Assembly (NCBI GenBank): GCA_035443885.1
Contig: DAOMNO010000012.1
Location: 815 to 64,814, forward strand
DNA: 64,000 bases
Origin: Phycisphaerales bacterium
Lineage (GTDB): Bacteria > Planctomycetota > Phycisphaerae > Phycisphaerales > SM1A02
Reading direction: 5' to 3'
The translations under genes and the position numbers were made by a program. Of the stretch, positions 5,503 to 45,977 are shown piece by piece (positions within the stretch are counted from its first letter, which is position 1; each line of letters starts with the position of its first letter). The notes under the pieces are model-generated. The model searched no databases. It was not told the origin of the DNA and was given only the letters and a program-made list of their open reading frames with translations.

Positions 5503-6990
5503 CTATCCGAGAAGAGCAAGCACATTTTGCGCGTTGACGTTGGCTGTTGCCAGCACTGAAGTGCCTGCCTGGGTCAGAATCTGAGCCCGCGTGAGAGCCG
5601 CCGTCTCCTTTGCGAAGTCCGCATCGCGGATTCTGGATTCGCTTGATGTGATGTTCTCAAGTCCGATCTGCAAGGCGCGGATGTTCGGCTGGATCGTGTT
5701 ACGCTCGAACGCGCCCAATCGGCCTCGAATGATCGAGATATCGTTGATGGCGGATTCGAGCACTCTGGTCGCGTTGGCGGACTGCCCCTTCACGATGGCG
5801 TTGTCACCGCCCGCCTTGAGCGAGTCAAGGAAGTAGCGGACGCCGTCAATCGACGTGCCCCCAAGCTGGCTGGCCGCGACCGACTGCACACCAAACCCGA
5901 TCTGCTGGTTTGAGTTGATCGTTGGCCCAAGCTGGAAGGTCGAGCCGCCGCCGGTGATGTGGAATGATGAAGTAAGGCTGCCAACAGTCGTATTGAACGC
6001 CGTGGATAGCGTGAATTCCGCGCTCAAGCCGGGCGAGTTGATGGAAACATCCAGCCCCTTGCCTCGTGCGAGCGCGCCGTTGACAACCGCCGTTACATCG
6101 CGTCCTTCGCCTCGTGTTACCGCTGTGGCCGTTCCCTTGGCGGGATACAGCGTGAACAACTCGCCACCGGAGCCGATCTTGCGGACGGAGACGAACTGAT
6201 CGGCACCGTAGGCGGTGGAGTTGAACCTCATGCCGCTGTTGCCACCGCTGGTTACGTTGAAGAACGACGCGCTGACGCCAGTGGACTCCTTATAGGTGTT
6301 CACCGCTGCGATGATTGATGCGTATGTCGTGCCAGAGGCAAACGTCAACGTCTGCACACCGAGGTTACCCGCCACTTCAATCGTAACCGTGCTGGCGAGT
6401 GCGCCGGTCTGCGCGCCGTTGATGCCTGAAAGGAAGAGCGAGCCTGTTCGGGCCGACGCCACCACTTGCACGCCGACGGGCACGGTCGCATTGTTGCCGA
6501 ACTGCGCACTGAACACTTTGGCGCGGGTCAACTCTGCGTTGTTCACACCTGATGTGATGTAATCCATCGACCCGTTGAGCAACTGCATGCCTGCAAAGGT
6601 CGCCGTGTTCGAGATGCGCGTGATGGATTCGATCGCGCTGTCGATCTGAAGCTGGTTCGCTTCGATCTCTTCCGCGCTCAATGCGCCGGTGTTGGCCGCC
6701 TCGACGACCAGTGACTTGATCGAGTTGAGCAGGTCGGCCACTTCCGCAAGGTATGCCTCTGTCGTTGAGATGACGAGACTGGCTCGCTCAGAGTTGTGAA
6801 TCGCCTGGTCAAGCCCCTGCACTTCGCTGCGCAGCCGCTCGGAAACAATCAAACCGGCGGGGTCATCCGCACCGCGGTTGATCCGAAGTCCGGTGGAAAG
6901 CCTTTGCAGGCGAACGGCAAGGTCGTTGTGCGACCGGCTGAGATTGCTTTGTGCGATAAGTGATGCGACGTTGGTATTGATCCTAGCCAT
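5503..6990 (-). CDS. fliC: flagellin (paralog 2)
   Basis: MARINTNVASLIAQSNL...LSTGLRINRGADDPAGLIVSERLR at the N-terminus and ...LTRAQILTQAGTSVLATANVNAQNVLALLG at the C-terminus. AAGGAGGA lies upstream of the ATG. Confidence 0.95.
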   Translation of the reverse strand: MARINTNVASLIAQSNLSRSHNDLAVRLQRLSTGLRINRGADDPAGLIVSERLRSEVQGLDQAIHNSERASLVISTTEAYLAEVADLLNSIKSLVVEAANTGALSAEEIEANQLQIDSAIESITRISNTATFAGMQLLNGSMDYITSGVNNAELTRAKVFSAQFGNNATVPVGVQVVASARTGSLFLSGINGAQTGALASTVTIEVAGNLGVQTLTFASGTTYASIIAAVNTYKESTGVSASFFNVTSGGNSGMRFNSTAYGADQFVSVRKIGSGGELFTLYPAKGTATAVTRGEGRDVTAVVNGALARGKGLDVSINSPGLSAEFTLSTAFNTTVGSLTSSFHITGGGSTFQLGPTINSNQQIGFGVQSVAASQLGGTSIDGVRYFLDSLKAGGDNAIVKGQSANATRVLESAINDISIIRGRLGAFERNTIQPNIRALQIGLENITSSESRIRDADFAKETAALTRAQILTQAGTSVLATANVNAQNVLALLG

Positions 6991-32150: not shown

Positions 32151-33899
32151 TCAGCACGGCCCCCACGAGCTGAGCAGGATGAGCAGGTCTTGCACGTCCA
32201 CCGTGCCGCTGTCATTGAGGTCCGCCGGGCAGTTGCCCTTGCCGCACGGTCCCCACGAACTGAGCAGGATGAGCAGGTCCTGCACGTCCACCGCACCGCT
32301 GTTGTTGAGGTCCGCTGGGCAGGCCGGTACGACCGGTGCGCAAGCAAGAAGATTGTTGAAGTTCTGCATTGCAAACGTCGGCGTGACGGAGCACAACCGC
32401 CACGTATTCGGAGCGCCGAACGTGCTGGTAACGCCGTCCGTGTAGTTGGCAAACACCTGCACATTGCCGGAAGGGTCTTGCGTAAGAATGCAGACTTCGC
32501 GGCTGCTGACACCGCGCCCACCGTAGCCGGCAGCACCCTCACCGGACGGACCAAAGACGACAGTGTTCTGCGCATCGCGAATCGTCAGCCTCCAGTCCTC
32601 ATGACCGACGGACATGCGACCGAAGACTTTCGGCTCTTCTGAGTGATACGTCGATGCGACAAAGTTCGTATCCGCAGTGTGGATGTTGATCCAGTTGCCG
32701 CCGGGAAGCGTATAGCTCACGTCGGAATCAAGGCCGCCGCTGAAGGTGTTGCGTTCAATGAACGTGATGATGGTGCCGGGCTGCAGGTTAGCGAACGCAG
32801 CGTTGTTGTTCAGCGTGACGGAGCCAAACTTGTTTTCACCAAGCTCTTCCCAGTGAAGGCTCCAGCCGCGCATATCAACGTTCTCACCCGTCACGACGAG
32901 TTCGAACCAGTTTCCGCCGTTACCCTGTACGCGGCCGAAGAACATATCCGCAGCCTGACCACCGTTCTCGTCCGCGTTTTCGTCGCCTCCGTTGAGCCAG
33001 TTGGCGTTGGCGACTGCGTTGTACTCATTGAGGATCACGCGATTACACGGGCACTCGACCCATGAACGCAGTGCGGTGAAGTCCTGATATCGTTCGCAGC
33101 GCACTTCGGGGAACGCGCTGATGAGATCGCTCCATCGGTTCGGCTTACCAAAGGTGGATGAGTCGCCGTCGTCGTAATGCGTGATGTTGACGGTGGAGAC
33201 GGGATTAAGCTCAAGACGGCCGACTTCGCGGCTATTGATGCCACCACCCTGCCAGCCAGCAATGCCTTCCCCGATCGGTCCATGCAGCAGTGTACCCTGC
33301 GCGTTGAGGATGCGACCCTGCCAATTGTCATTGCCGACTGCGAAGTAGCCGGGGTCTTCACCCGCACGATTGTGCACCGTCGTGAGGTACTGCGCGTCGT
33401 AGCTGTTGATGTTGATCCACCAGTCCCCCGCGCATGGATCGAAGCTGACATCAGTATCCAGACCGCCCTGTGCGGTTGTCTTCTCGATGATCGTGATGAT
33501 CGTTCCCGCGCGAAGGTTGGCCCAAAGCGGGTCTTGCGTGAAGGTGATGATGCCTTGACGGATCGTGCCCGGCGCGAGCCAGATGACAGTTCCGTCGCCA
33601 TCAGGGTTGCCGGTCTCGGCCCAGCGCAGCTCCCAGCCGCGTACGTCGAGATTGTCGATGGTAACGACGAGTTCGATCCAGTTGCCACCGTTACCCATCA
33701 CGCGGCCAAAGAACGTATCGTCGCCGCCTTCACACGCAAAACCGCCCGGTCCTTCACAGGCAGGCGTATCGGGGTTGCCAATCCACTTCTGACTGCCGAC
33801 GCAGTTCCATTCGTTGATAATCAGACCGCCCGCTTGCGCCATCGCTGCGGATGCAACGGTGAGCGATACGACGGCGGGGACCGCGAAATGCGAAATCAT
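32151..33899 (-). CDS. secreted protein with two lamin-tail-domain-like modules and a C-terminal double dockerin-like repeat
   Basis: It has a signal peptide and an internal duplication: IINEWNCV...FFGRVMGNGGNWIELVVT..LDVRGWELRWAE versus ILNEYNAV...FFGRVQGNGGNWFELVVTGENVDMRGWSLHWEE. The tail is CPADLNNSGAVDVQDLLILLSSWGPC...CPADLNDSGTVDVQDLLILLSSWGPC. AAGGAGAG lies upstream of the ATG. Confidence 0.7.
   Translation of the reverse strand: MISHFAVPAVVSLTVASAAMAQAGGLIINEWNCVGSQKWIGNPDTPACEGPGGFACEGGDDTFFGRVMGNGGNWIELVVTIDNLDVRGWELRWAETGNPDGDGTVIWLAPGTIRQGIITFTQDPLWANLRAGTIITIIEKTTAQGGLDTDVSFDPCAGDWWININSYDAQYLTTVHNRAGEDPGYFAVGNDNWQGRILNAQGTLLHGPIGEGIAGWQGGGINSREVGRLELNPVSTVNITHYDDGDSSTFGKPNRWSDLISAFPEVRCERYQDFTALRSWVECPCNRVILNEYNAVANANWLNGGDENADENGGQAADMFFGRVQGNGGNWFELVVTGENVDMRGWSLHWEELGENKFGSVTLNNNAAFANLQPGTIITFIERNTFSGGLDSDVSYTLPGGNWINIHTADTNFVASTYHSEEPKVFGRMSVGHEDWRLTIRDAQNTVVFGPSGEGAAGYGGRGVSSREVCILTQDPSGNVQVFANYTDGVTSTFGAPNTWRLCSVTPTFAMQNFNNLLACAPVVPACPADLNNSGAVDVQDLLILLSSWGPCGKGNCPADLNDSGTVDVQDLLILLSSWGPC
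32154..32321. repeat. tandem 78-nt coding repeats (period 90 nt) specifying the two dockerin-like units
   Basis: Copies at 32154-32231 and 32244-32321 differ at only about 10 positions (gcacgg[c/t]ccccacga[g/a]ctgagcaggatgagcaggtc[t/c]tgcacgtccacc...). Confidence 0.85.
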
Positions 33900-42069: not shown

Positions 42070-42618
42070 TCATCTCCGCCGGCGGCAGCCGAACGCTGCG
42101 AGCGCGAACACGCCCAGCGCGCCGGGCGCGGGGATCGGCAGACCGAAGTGCAGATCGTCATATACGACGAGCTGAGAGCCAATAATTCGATATAAATATA
42201 CTTCATCGAACGGCTCATCAGAAACTAATCCGGCGAACATAGAGGGATGGTCCCAAAATTGGACGCTTGTAAATGTTAACATGCCTTTGTAATACAGATT
42301 AAATACAACGCTGCCAATGAAATCAACAGCAACGGCATGTCGAGGCGTATCAAAGTAGAAACGCGAGCCAGGCTGTGCGAGTAGACCGAAGAACTCACCA
42401 TCATTCCAAGCCCAGTTACCCGGCGCGAACGTAATGCCGTGGGAATCGTAATACTGAGTATTGATCGGAATGCCATGCACGGGACCCACGAAATCAATCG
42501 TGCTATGCGACGGTACCGCCGCTTCCCACGCGGCCTTGTTCGTGTATTGAATAACACTTGCCTGCGCTGAACTGGCCATCATGATGAAGCTGATAAGAAC
42601 AAAGATGAGCGATCGCAT
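42070..42618 (-). CDS. PEP-CTERM sorting-domain protein (paralog B)
   Basis: The signal peptide is MRSLIFVLISFIMMASSAQA, followed by SVIQYTNKAAWEAAVPSHSTIDFVG. The C-terminus is LPIPAPGALGVFALAAFGCRRRR. GC content is visibly lower than in the flanks. Confidence 0.8.
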   Translation of the reverse strand: MRSLIFVLISFIMMASSAQASVIQYTNKAAWEAAVPSHSTIDFVGPVHGIPINTQYYDSHGITFAPGNWAWNDGEFFGLLAQPGSRFYFDTPRHAVAVDFIGSVVFNLYYKGMLTFTSVQFWDHPSMFAGLVSDEPFDEVYLYRIIGSQLVVYDDLHFGLPIPAPGALGVFALAAFGCRRRR

Positions 42619-42684: not shown

Positions 42685-43098
42685 TCAGTTATCGAACGGG
42701 TCATAGCCCGGGCACACCGGGCAATTCTGACACTGGGTGATGTAGTTGTTGAACCAGCACGTCCAGTTGTCCTTGGTGAGCTGCGAAGCGTTGCCGGTCA
42801 TGATGTTGTAATAATCCTGCCACTGCTGTTGGGTGAGACCCGCATCAGTAAGTTCATCGGAGAGCGACTTGACGGTCGTCACCACGCCGGGGCAAGGCCC
42901 CCACGCGCCAAGCAGAATCAAGAGGTCCTGCACATCGACGACACCGCTGTCGTTGAGGTCCGGCGAGCCGAAACACGGCGTACCAGAATACGAGCCCCAT
43001 GCCCCAAGCAGAACAAGCAGGTCCTGCACATCGACCCGGAAATCGCCGTTGAGGTCAGCCGGGCAGTAGGAAGCCGGTTCGGGGATCATCAGGAACAT
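42685..43098 (-). CDS. orphan double dockerin-like repeat plus Cys-rich C-terminal module (137 aa, no signal peptide); possibly a truncated gene copy
   Basis: MFLMIPEPASYCPADLNGDFRVDVQDLLVLLGAWG...SPDLNDSGVVDVQDLLILLGAWGPCPG...TQQQWQDYYNIM...WTCWFNNYITQCQNCPVCPGYDPFDN is colinear with the last ~130 residues of the 43727-45466 protein. Its ATG overlaps the last 10 nt of the upstream gene. Confidence 0.5.
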   Translation of the reverse strand: MFLMIPEPASYCPADLNGDFRVDVQDLLVLLGAWGSYSGTPCFGSPDLNDSGVVDVQDLLILLGAWGPCPGVVTTVKSLSDELTDAGLTQQQWQDYYNIMTGNASQLTKDNWTCWFNNYITQCQNCPVCPGYDPFDN

Positions 43099-43661
43099 CT
43101 CCGCCGGCGGCAGCCGAACGCAGCAAGCGCGAACACACCCAGCGCGCCGGGCGCGGGAACAGGTAACCCAAAATGAATATCATCGATATACACATGGCTA
43201 AGAGGTAAGGGCCGGAATAGTTTCGCATGTGTGAATGACTCGGTCGAAAGCAGGCCGAGGAACAATCCTGTGCTGCCAACAATGTAGTGGCTTGTATACA
43301 GCAGCGTATCATTTGAATAGAGTTGAATTTGTAATCCACCCGGAAAATCAGCGGCAAGTGCATGTTGTGGCACGCTAAACGTGATCCAAATATCATTATT
43401 ACTGCCCCTGATGCCTTCTCCGTCGTTTGCCATTCCAGACGAATGAAAATACCCCAACTGCTGCCCGGTGAAGGTTACGCCGAGGTCGGTTGAGTGCATC
43501 GGGAGAATCGGGAATCCGTCTTGTCCACCCACAAAGTCAATCGTCGTGTACGCGCCTACCGCATTCTGCCATGCGGATTTGTTCGTGTATTGAACGACAG
43601 CGCCATCTGCTGCGGCGCAGCAACCCAGAAGAATCGCGATGCTTACAAGAGTAACTTTCAT
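43089..43661 (-). CDS. PEP-CTERM sorting-domain protein (paralog A)
   Basis: The signal peptide is MKVTLVSIAILLGCCAAADGA, followed by VVQYTNKSAWQNAVGAYTTIDFVGG. The C-terminus is LPVPAPGALGVFALAAFGCRRRRCS. The start is moved to ATG 43661, which has GGAGA upstream. Confidence 0.8.
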   Translation of the reverse strand: MKVTLVSIAILLGCCAAADGAVVQYTNKSAWQNAVGAYTTIDFVGGQDGFPILPMHSTDLGVTFTGQQLGYFHSSGMANDGEGIRGSNNDIWITFSVPQHALAADFPGGLQIQLYSNDTLLYTSHYIVGSTGLFLGLLSTESFTHAKLFRPLPLSHVYIDDIHFGLPVPAPGALGVFALAAFGCRRRRCS

Positions 43662-43726: not shown

Positions 43727-45466
43727 TCAGTTGGCGAACGGGTCCGTCCCAATGCACTGCGGACAGTTCACGCACTGCATCACGCGGTTCTTGAAGTAGC
43801 AACTCCAGCGAGCTTTCTGTCGATCGCTGCCATTCATCATGACTTCAAGGAACTCGTTGAACTGCTGCTGGGTGATTCCGGCTTCGGTCAGCAAATCGCT
43901 CAGCGACAACACGGCTGTGTCGAAACCCGGACACGGGCCCCAGTTCGCCAGTAGAATCAGCAAATCCTGCACGTCCACAGCGCCAGTGTCATTGAGGTCT
44001 GCACAGCCGCCAGATGGCCCCCACGCCGCGAGCAGAATCAGCAGGTCAAGCACATCCACGACGAAATCGCCGTTGAGGTCGCCTGCGCAGTAGGATGCCG
44101 GAATCAGCAGAAACGCGCGACGAATGCTCAACCATTCGATTTCTTTCTCGTTCTCGTCAATCGCCTCAATGTGGCGAAGCCCTTCTCCCACAATCCAGCC
44201 GTTGTTGTTGATGTCGTAGGCGTGAGTCAGTCGAATCCACTCCTCGCCGTGATCGCACGCGATGAGGTCGTTCAGATCGAACGCTTCCCACTGGGAATCG
44301 GCATAGCGCCAGAGAACTGCAGCATTGGTCTCATCGCTACGTCCGACAACGTATAGTTCATCATCATCGAACGGGTCGGCAATGGCATAAGCCCGCATGT
44401 CGTCGTTGGATGCGTTTGGCAGTGTCGGCAGTTCGATCGGAGTTGCCGTCAGTGAATCCCAGAATGTGCCGCGTTCGCGACACTGCTGACCTACGGTTTT
44501 ATACGAACTTCCGACAATGTTCTCACTGATGTTGGCATCGTACGCAACGGTCTTGGATGCCGATCCGGGGTTCAGCGATTCCAGATTGGCAGCCACGCTG
44601 GTCCCCCATGCTGAACCGGTTTGTGTATCCAGCACGTTGCAGTTGTGACATGTGCCGCAGAACGACTCGTCGCTGCTCACGCCGATCGTCAATCCGGTAT
44701 CACCGATGCCGAGCGCTTCACTTCGACAATCTTCCGGGAACATGGCGTTGCACTGTGTCGGCGCCAGCGTGTCAAATGGAAAAGACGACAGATCAATCGT
44801 CATCTTGAAGCCACGGTAGGCAGACCAGACGGGAGTGGTGTTCTCGAACAGATACCCGCCGACCAGCGTGGGATATGGAGTGTCGTTGTTGATCGCTTGT
44901 CCGTCACTCGGTTCGCCGCCGAGCTGATTCCCAAGACCCAAGCTGATATCACCCTGCGAAGAGAGCCTCCAAAGCCATGCTTCAGTCGGGCTTGTCGTTA
45001 CATTGCCGACAAGATAACCGCTGTCGTTGATGCCTCGCGCATCCATGTGAATAGGCCCGGAGGGTTCGGCAGGAGACGGCAACTGTGAGATCCCTGCGCT
45101 TCTGCCATAGGCAGGATGGAGGAGCCAGACAAACCCGCGTTCGCGCGTGCCGACGCCTGAAGTATAAATCCTACACCAGCCTGCAACTTCTCCATGATCA
45201 TTGATGCCGTAGGCCGCTGCTTCAGGCGGAGTGACGTCACGGAAATCAGGTGATGGATTCCCAAGATCAATGATTCGATACCTCGGCGTCATAGGCGGAT
45301 CAGCGCTGGCTGGCGTTGCGGCGGTCATCACCCATGCCACCATCGGCGCGAGCGACCAGACGCAGCAGAGCGTGCCGGAGCCGATGCGCCACAGCCTTGA
45401 TATGCGCCAAACGCTGCAATCATGTGTGTGTGTGTGTGTGTGTTTCTGTCTCACGATCGTTGGCAT
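43727..45466 (-). CDS. secreted HAF-type repeat protein with a double dockerin-like repeat and Cys-rich C-terminal module
   Basis: Start ATG 45466 has AAGGAG 7 nt upstream. The signal peptide is ...LWRIGSGTLCCVWSLAPMVAWVMTAATPASA. Repeats of the form GINDHGEVAG, ARGINDSGYLVG and DINNNGWIVGEG are HAF-family-like. The tail runs CAGDLNGDFVVDVLDLLILLAAWG...CADLNDTGAVDVQDLLILLANWGPCPG, then ...WSCYFKNRVMQCVNCPQCIGTDPFAN. Confidence 0.8.
   Translation of the reverse strand: MPTIVRQKHTHTHTHDCSVWRISRLWRIGSGTLCCVWSLAPMVAWVMTAATPASADPPMTPRYRIIDLGNPSPDFRDVTPPEAAAYGINDHGEVAGWCRIYTSGVGTRERGFVWLLHPAYGRSAGISQLPSPAEPSGPIHMDARGINDSGYLVGNVTTSPTEAWLWRLSSQGDISLGLGNQLGGEPSDGQAINNDTPYPTLVGGYLFENTTPVWSAYRGFKMTIDLSSFPFDTLAPTQCNAMFPEDCRSEALGIGDTGLTIGVSSDESFCGTCHNCNVLDTQTGSAWGTSVAANLESLNPGSASKTVAYDANISENIVGSSYKTVGQQCRERGTFWDSLTATPIELPTLPNASNDDMRAYAIADPFDDDELYVVGRSDETNAAVLWRYADSQWEAFDLNDLIACDHGEEWIRLTHAYDINNNGWIVGEGLRHIEAIDENEKEIEWLSIRRAFLLIPASYCAGDLNGDFVVDVLDLLILLAAWGPSGGCADLNDTGAVDVQDLLILLANWGPCPGFDTAVLSLSDLLTEAGITQQQFNEFLEVMMNGSDRQKARWSCYFKNRVMQCVNCPQCIGTDPFAN
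45423..45442. repeat. (TG)10/(CA)10 dinucleotide microsatellite inside the 5' coding region of the HAF-repeat gene
   Basis: Read directly: ca-tgtgtgtgtgtgtgtgtgtg-tttc. On the sense strand it is AAA (CA)10 T GAT, encoding K-HTHTHTH-D at codons 8-16. Confidence 0.95.
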
Positions 45467-45903
45467 AGCAGAACTCCTTTGGAGTTGCCCGGCCATCCGT
45501 GATCGAAACCGGGAAGTCATCGCAACAAGCGCGTTCAACCAATCAGCGCAGCAGCATGATGCCGAACGACAGCGCGGGCGTTGAACGCCCCGGCTGAAGT
45601 GCTGAAACTGACTGACAAACGTGCTCATCATTCAAACCCCCCGGCCCCCCCGATACCGCCACAGGCAGCCGGAAGTGGAGGATTGGCGACGATCCCGGAA
45701 CCTCCGCCCCGTGCGGAAGCCCGGCGTCGCTGTTTCAGCGTACAGCAAGAATGGCCGTTTGCAAGCAGAATCTCTCGGTTTTGGCGAGGTCTGCGCAGTG
45801 TGACAGAGGCGCGAGGGCCATAGTTGTCTGGCGTGGAGCAAGGGCATTCCACAGGTCAGTACACGGCAAATCGCCGATCCTTGCGCGCGGACATGCTGCA
45901 AAA

Positions 45904-45929
45904 TGAAAAAACCCGGCTCGTACCGGGTT
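45904..45929 (-). terminator. rho-independent terminator ending the ribosomal/rpoA/rplQ operon
   Basis: aacccgg-ctcgta-ccgggtt gives a 7-bp stem. On the minus strand it is followed by TTTTTTC. It lies 50 nt after the rplQ stop. Confidence 0.6.
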
Positions 45930-45977
45930 TGTCAATCGCACTTTGGCACTGGGCAGCGTACGCCGCAATTGAGTGGC

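Follow-up and report, generated by a model that had tools for sequence, protein, structure and literature searches.

Contingency loci in bacteria share a recognisable signature, in which a perfect repeat of a non-triplet unit lies just past the start codon within a dispensable leader, the genes belong to a multigene surface family with a homogenised 5′ cassette, the unit numbers differ by non-multiples of three, and ON and OFF frames are mixed. In the opa genes of Neisseria, a CTCTT pentamer repeat is situated in the region coding for the leader peptide. In Helicobacter pylori, oipA (hopH) possesses a CT dinucleotide repeat of 5–11 units in its signal-peptide region, and the reading frame set by this repeat switches the gene ON or OFF (PMC10564699). 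Furthermore, an excess of simple-sequence repeats (SSRs) close to N-termini is recognised as a mark of phase variation and has been interpreted as tuning towards it (PMC3315296). The element described here is a (CA)10 tract in a 64,000-nt stretch of DNA from a Phycisphaerales bacterium (assembly GCA_035443885.1, contig DAOMNO010000012.1, positions 815–64,814; hereafter the window). It occupies window positions 45423–45442 on the minus strand, close to the 5′ end of a gene termed gene A (43727–45466, minus strand, 579 aa), and an earlier note on this DNA had proposed it as a candidate slipped-strand phase-variation switch. Sister genes and relatives with other repeat lengths and repeat kinds, in mixed reading frames, support that proposal, and the probability that (CA)10 is a translational contingency switch, turned on and off by slippage, is placed at about 0.75.

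On the sense strand, the beginning of gene A reads AAGGAG TTCTGCT ATG CCA ACG ATC GTG AGA CAG AAA (CA)10 T GAT TGC. The Shine–Dalgarno-like AAGGAG (45474–45479, minus strand) is located 7 nt before the ATG start codon (45464–45466, minus strand), a start context already described as strong from the sequence alone. The gene A protein is identical to HRQ76224.1 (PK098_09935, 579 aa), encoded in a Phycisphaerales metagenome-assembled genome (MAG) and annotated by the NCBI Prokaryotic Genome Annotation Pipeline (PGAP) from this same ATG, and the leader is conserved in the two paralogs, B and C, described below. Eight codons separate the start from the tract, which begins 24 nt downstream of the ATG, falls within codons 9–15 and encodes HTHTHTH in the n-region of the putative signal peptide, as the earlier note had read it. 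The tract is a perfect tandem repeat with a unit length that is not a multiple of three, and it lies inside the open reading frame (ORF) near its 5′ end. The leader as a whole comprises 55 codons (45302–45466, minus strand), with a basic n-region containing the repeat, an h-region LCCVWSLAPMVAWVMTAA, and a c-region in which PASA is followed by DPP. Hydropathy and charge counting place five Lys/Arg residues upstream of the hydrophobic maximum at residues 33–43 (LCCVWSLAPMV), and the ASA/DPP motif common to the homologs is the probable cleavage site.

The claim that the tract is unique in the window holds. Tandem Repeats Finder reports (CA)10, with 100% matches, as the sole period-2 array of the 64 kb, and an exhaustive SSR scan of the window finds, apart from it, zero dinucleotide tracts of at least 10 nt. 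When the window (59.4% G+C) was simulated 200 times with a first-order Markov model, the longest dinucleotide tract measured 8–16 nt and never reached 20 nt. Because of this uniqueness and the failure of any simulated tract to reach 20 nt, (CA)10 is real and not a chance product of composition. Control loci were drawn from 80 dockerin genes of Phycisphaerales and other Planctomycetota (about 0.42 Mb) and from 62 more distant HAF loci (about 0.23 Mb); the former came from a protein scan keyed on the dockerin motif, are mostly unrelated to gene A, and serve as a negative control for SSRs only. In these approximately 0.65 Mb, no dinucleotide tract of 12 nt or longer occurs besides those of the relatives described below. 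Locus L011, from Phycisphaerales DLM2.Bin64, contains at 2522–2541 a composite homopolymer, T11G9, about 270 nt upstream of a dockerin-domain match; here too, slippage may occur close to a gene for a surface protein.

The consequences of a change in repeat number were followed by rebuilding gene A alleles of 6–14 units in silico and translating each from the ATG at 45466. With 7, 10 or 13 units, the product has 577–581 aa (579 aa at n = 10) and the gene is ON. With 6, 9 or 12 units, translation stops at a TGA adjoining the tract (45420–45422, minus strand) after 12–16 aa (14 aa at n = 9), and with 8, 11 or 14 units it stops at another TGA, 31 codons past the tract (45328–45330, minus strand), after 44–48 aa (46 aa at n = 11). 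These simulated alleles reproduce exactly a hand calculation in the earlier note, according to which the present 10 units are ON and one unit more or less is OFF. The gain or loss of a single unit produces a frameshift and an early stop, and the related loci follow the same pattern. Each of the three frames of (CA)n encodes alternating His and Thr.

At least four gene copies of this Phycisphaerales species, gene A among them, carry a near-identical 5′ leader cassette. The common leader of the same-species paralogs reads ATGCCAACGATCGTGAGACAGAAA(CA)nTGATTGCAG. Paralog B, on contig L002 of a second MAG of the window species (GCA_035444725.1), has TGCCAACGATCGTGAGACAGAAA(CA)16TGATTGCAG and is in frame; in the PK098 MAG, it is a complete 599-aa protein with the same His-Thr count. 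Paralog C, on contig L003 of GCA_035444725.1, has (CA)18, so that its ATG frame meets the TGA adjoining the tract and the mature protein lies in the +1 frame, and the PGAP annotation of this gene begins at an internal Met in each of the two MAGs. Paralog C also differs from A and B by an 18-nt insertion, CACATCATGCACATTATT (L003 71–88), a few codons past the tract, which lengthens the n-region. Paralog D (P0028) is a 79-aa remnant beginning MPTIVRQEHTHTHTHD, with an HTHTHTH leader. The leaders of A, B and C are nearly identical at the nucleotide level whereas their mature parts share 41–50% protein identity, which indicates that the 5′ cassette evolves in concert; between the mature parts, synonymous sites are saturated, with a proportion of synonymous differences (pS) of about 0.7.

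The multi-copy nature of the cassette causes short-read assembly to break at the leader. L002 and L003 begin at the same base inside the shared leader. In the contig of GCA_035444725.1 orthologous to the window (L001, DAOMPJ010000107.1), 17 N at 6637–6653 stand in place of a 36-nt segment with the tract inside it, and the protein that PGAP called is truncated to 451 aa. The idea that this gap records heterogeneity among reads was rejected; the multi-copy leader breaking the assembly explains it.

Comparison of orthologous loci, which the earlier note had suggested as a check, reveals repeats at the same place, with differing unit numbers and with both ON and OFF frames. Exact leader patterns gave zero matches in GTDB representative genomes or JGI metagenome contigs, and the distant relatives were found by protein-guided searches. 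At 30–40% identity, two homologs from unrelated metagenomes have (CA)8 and (CA)9, respectively, and neither is in frame. The first, L004 from the European Nucleotide Archive (ENA), encodes a product 35% identical to that of gene A, reads GGAGGA-N10-ATG A(CA)8 and is OFF; at 9 units it would be ON, with a clean signal peptide MTHTHTHICSLALLLALAVGAVMNLATLASA/DPP. The second, L086 from JGI, reads AAGGAG-N8-ATGAAGAACGGAT(CA)9 and is likewise OFF, to be restored at 8 or 11 units. In all CA-bearing loci, the tract lies 4–24 nt past the ATG. The heptamer AGTCACC takes the place of CA in two further JGI loci. In L087 (617–644), AAGGGGG-N6-ATG(AGTCACC)4 is OFF and would be ON at 5 units, and its mature frame contains no possible start codon (ATG, GTG or TTG) from the upstream stop to the hydrophobic core. 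In L156 (2856–2918), from another sample and 88% identical to L087 in nucleotide sequence, AAGGGG-N6 precedes ATG AGCCACC(AGTCACC)8, which is OFF in the other frame; nine heptamer units, the first imperfect, thus stand against four in L087.

In addition, a cluster of at least 90% identity includes P0080 (571 aa), whose leader contains LSLSLSLS, together with two short members, P0067 (522 aa) and P0079 (343 aa), which begin at an internal Met and are present on seven contigs in all. Judging from the peptide, the LSLSLSLS leader is probably encoded by (CT)n. The orthologs P0066, P0068 and P0069 have no perfect repeat and possess in-frame leaders with basic n-regions, the leader of P0068 (MVNSIRQSHARRHTAQ...) resembling that of the window gene (MPTIVRQKHTHTHTHD...); these in-frame leaders support translation through the leader region. 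The contig of P0005 was uninformative, with a different gene directly upstream and no leader.

Across these loci, the unit number is polymorphic among paralogs, orthologs and strains, with 10, 16 and 18 CA units in the paralogs and 8 and 9 in the orthologs, and the differences are not all multiples of three. Genes A and B are ON; C, L004, L086, L087 and L156 are OFF. About four of ten alleles are in frame, near the one-third expected at mutational equilibrium. The CA tracts here range from 8 to 18 units, and oipA switches at 5–11 CT units. The OFF genes retain intact ORFs of 509–568 codons, and in every pair the proportion of nonsynonymous differences (pN) is far lower than pS (0.26 vs 0.74 for L004 and L086, which are both OFF); they are therefore not old or decayed pseudogenes. 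The occurrence of three different repeat units, CA, AGTCACC and probably CT, at the same site would form part of the contingency-locus signature here.

The proposed mechanism is as follows. Slipped-strand mispairing at replication would add or remove CA units. At 7, 10, 13 and so on, the ATG and the mature protein would share a reading frame, whereas any other count would lead to a stop within 12–48 codons, so that no protein is exported and the expression of the partner gene downstream is probably reduced as well. The tract itself lies within the coding sequence, in the n-region, a part of the presumably cleaved signal peptide that is dispensable. With each copy of the leader cassette holding its own repeat number, a cell could display varied combinations of beta-propeller/dockerin-like surface proteins. 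The selective agent may be recognition by phages or grazers, or attachment. The broader proposal, namely that an uncultivated and apparently free-living Phycisphaerales clade keeps phase-variable two-gene surface modules with a homogenised leader, for which CA, AGTCACC and probably CT were recruited independently, is held with evenly divided confidence.

Several observations weigh against a switch. All repeat numbers are those of the assembly consensus rather than of single reads, and elevated, reversible switching within populations is inferred from such consensus assemblies rather than demonstrated. Paralogs B and C are in the same state in both MAGs of the window species: B has 16 units in each, deduced in one case from the protein, and C is called each time from an internal Met. 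The L004 lineage is represented by seven ENA assemblies, each with n = 8; these differ by 0–5 nt over 1578 nt, as in a near-clonal population, bear SPAdes-style (NODE_) and MEGAHIT-style (k141_) names, and have 2.6–4.5x coverage where it is stated. Such stability is compatible with typical rates of phase variation, under which a majority allele persists. Most consensus states are OFF, which also fits recent inactivation. Finally, a sigma-70 promoter scan of the sense strand upstream of gene A returned no match.

The alternative that survives best, although it is considered unlikely, holds that the CA run is kept for translation initiation, as an unstructured initiation region, and that the out-of-frame copies are recently inactivated genes. 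In Escherichia coli, CA repeats close to the start codon are documented to enhance translation (Martin-Farmer and Janssen 1999, cited in PMC9031893). The constant proximity of the CA tracts to the ATG and the stable consensus number in all seven L004-lineage assemblies agree with such a role. However, it leaves unexplained why a heptamer, (AGTCACC)n, and probably (CT)n occupy the same position, why the tracts are perfect, long (up to 18 units) and variable in unit number, and why ORFs longer than 500 codons persist, with pN far lower than pS, in five independent OFF genes. The enhancer and switch roles are not exclusive.

A second alternative attributes the differing repeat numbers and frames to assembly or sequencing artefacts, generated by low-coverage short reads across a repeated leader. 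The contig ends inside the shared leader at L002 and L003, the N gap in L001, and the coverage of only 2.6–4.5x for some contigs would suit it. However, at 16–36 nt the tracts fit within the 141-nt k-mers of the MEGAHIT (k141) contigs. The final k-mers typical of SPAdes are likewise believed to exceed such tracts, and the NODE contigs record no k-mer size. Seven assemblies with both kinds of name share n = 8, and the 16 units of paralog B recur in the protein of the other MAG. Two long JGI contigs are five heptamer units apart, and the window itself is contiguous. Artefact is accordingly a very improbable source of the pattern.

It is equally improbable that translation starts past the tract, for instance with the Met of SLAPMVAW, in which case the repeat would lie in the 5′ untranslated region and translation would not depend on its length; the earlier note had named such a start as evidence that would count against a switch. 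In-frame ATG and GTG codons do occur at codons 42–46, and annotators of OFF alleles used internal starts of this kind. However, a start at the Met of codon 42 would lose all five basic residues and most of the hydrophobic core, and no Shine–Dalgarno-like motif precedes the internal Met in the sequence as read by eye rather than scanned. Furthermore, the mature frame of L087 offers no possible start codon in the corresponding interval, and the repeat-free orthologs encode the long leader in frame. Upstream Shine–Dalgarno-like motifs stand before the ATG in L086, L004, L087 and L156, at the spacings given above. The remaining alternative, that the tract is selected for its His-Thr peptide, for instance in metal binding or as an export signal, is hardly tenable: in-frame copies always carry the His-Thr run, but the peptide belongs to a presumably cleaved leader, relatives have SHQSPVT or LS repeats or none at the site, and five of the nine alleles described, more than half, leave the downstream protein untranslated.

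The contingency switch, as the preferred reading, would act on a protein with four recognisable regions. The AlphaFold model of the gene A product (mean predicted local distance difference test score 77.5, predicted template modelling score 0.78) shows a disordered segment at residues 1–57 that covers the leader, a beta-rich DUF3466/HAF-like beta-propeller at about 60–456, a dockerin-like pair at about 460–510, and a helical, Cys-rich C-terminal domain. The match to DUF3466 (PF11949) scores 31.5 bits, above the Pfam cut-off of 25.1. The HAF-repeat model TIGR02913 (21 bits; cut-off 22.65), the GC-type dockerin model NF041540 (20.8 bits; cut-off 29) and Dockerin_1 PF00404 (19.8 bits; cut-off 22.9) all remain below their thresholds, and given the scores of NF041540 and PF00404 the domain is called only dockerin-like, although NCBI names the paralog P0003 a GC-type dockerin protein. 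The earlier note had designated gene A a HAF-repeat/dockerin gene; the HAF-repeat and dockerin models themselves match only beneath their cut-offs. A fold search returned generic beta-propellers only (CylK, sialidases and polysaccharide lyases, template modelling scores ≤0.41), for which reason the product can be described as a predicted secreted beta-propeller/dockerin-like protein, with no specific biochemical function assignable. The Pfam and NCBIfam scans gave only DUF3466, HAF-repeat and dockerin models, with no match to the Hop or Opa families.

Gene A is the head of a two-gene module. The partner gene B1 (43089–43661, minus strand, 190 aa) begins 65 nt past gene A and encodes a signal peptide and a PEP-CTERM-like tail, VPAPGALGVFALAAFGCRRRR. 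Because no terminator-like site was found between A and B1 across this 65-nt gap, the two are probably co-transcribed, and an OFF frame in A may also lower the expression of B1. Downstream, a truncated copy of gene A (42685–43098, minus strand, 137 aa) contains only the dockerin-like pair and the C-terminal domain, and is followed by B2 (42070–42618, minus strand, 182 aa), a paralog of B1. The order in the window is A, B1, truncated A and B2, and L003 is arranged identically; the duplicated module at 42.07–45.47 kb, which gene A had been said to head, is real. In every locus, a partner of 180–200 aa follows gene A or its homolog after 30–91 nt. Pairwise comparison establishes its homology in L002, L003, L150 and L085, and the partners in L086 and L087 are candidates taken from ORF listings rather than from pairwise comparison. 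The partner proteins share a signal peptide, the motif V(V/I)QYTNKAAW and a tail of the form FGLPxPAPGALGVFALAAFGCRRRR. The tails of B1 and B2 (VPAPGA, a hydrophobic stretch and RRRR) resemble the PEP-CTERM motif, and neither protein has any NCBIfam or Pfam match at E ≤ 0.01, be it to a PEP-CTERM hidden Markov model or to another. Elsewhere in the window, a second secreted protein (32151–33899, minus strand) consists in part of an N-terminal domain with an internal duplication and, at the C-terminus, of two dockerin-like repeats, the latter visible as a 90-nt tandem duplication at 32154–32322; no SSR exists at the 5′ end of its gene.

On the upstream side, a terminator-like hairpin followed by a T-run after rplQ (45909–45930, minus strand) divides gene A from the ribosomal-protein operon, and the promoter of gene A should therefore lie in 45467–45908. 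Within this interval, a G7 run (45645–45651) is followed four bases on, along the sense strand, by a G6 run (45635–45640), about 180 nt upstream of the ATG at 45466. The G7 run is one of three homopolymers of at least 7 nt in the window, and both lengths are the same in L001; the pair may represent another slippage site, close to the promoter, or have no significance. An inverton was rejected in the absence of inverted repeats flanking the upstream region of gene A, and no Rfam match occurs in or near the leader.

If switching at this locus is confirmed, bet-hedging by contingency loci would extend to uncultivated bacteria of aquatic or engineered ecosystems, which would point to phages, grazers or attachment, and not to immunity, as the driving pressure. 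Stochastic surface switching would then be an adaptation outside host–pathogen settings as well, most plausibly against phages or grazers. It would also offer a concrete explanation for the frequent labelling of such genes as truncated or "partial" and for the assembly breaks within them, and the switching would be directly measurable in existing metagenomic reads.

Among known systems, the downstream CA-repeat enhancers of E. coli resemble gene A in having a CA multimer just 3′ of the start codon (PMC9031893). However, they are engineered or short and were studied for initiation efficiency, not for frame switching, and neither the out-of-frame alleles nor the other repeat units at the site are explained by them. 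The closest mechanism is that of oipA and the related hop genes (sabA, babB and hopZ). As in gene A, a dinucleotide repeat is situated in the signal-peptide coding region of a surface protein belonging to a multigene family, and both states exist among strains. There are significant differences, in that oipA encodes a beta-barrel outer membrane protein and uses a CT unit, whereas gene A encodes a beta-propeller/dockerin-like protein and uses CA; H. pylori is a human gastric pathogen, whereas the host of gene A is an uncultivated member of the Phycisphaerales from environmental metagenomes; and switching is proven for oipA and inferred for gene A. The opa genes share with the gene A family several paralogs per genome, a conserved leader and individual repeat numbers, by which the genes would switch independently and generate combinatorial variation of the surface, but their unit is a pentamer, the proteins are unrelated, and the setting is host-restricted and driven by immune evasion. 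The likeness of gene A to Hop and Opa is one of mechanism only, not of homology. The earlier note had known of no contingency locus in this kind of organism or gene family, and literature searches agree, with no such switch reported for Planctomycetota or for HAF/dockerin proteins. The mechanism is already known, and the phylum, the lifestyle and the gene family in which it appears here are new as far as these literature searches reach.

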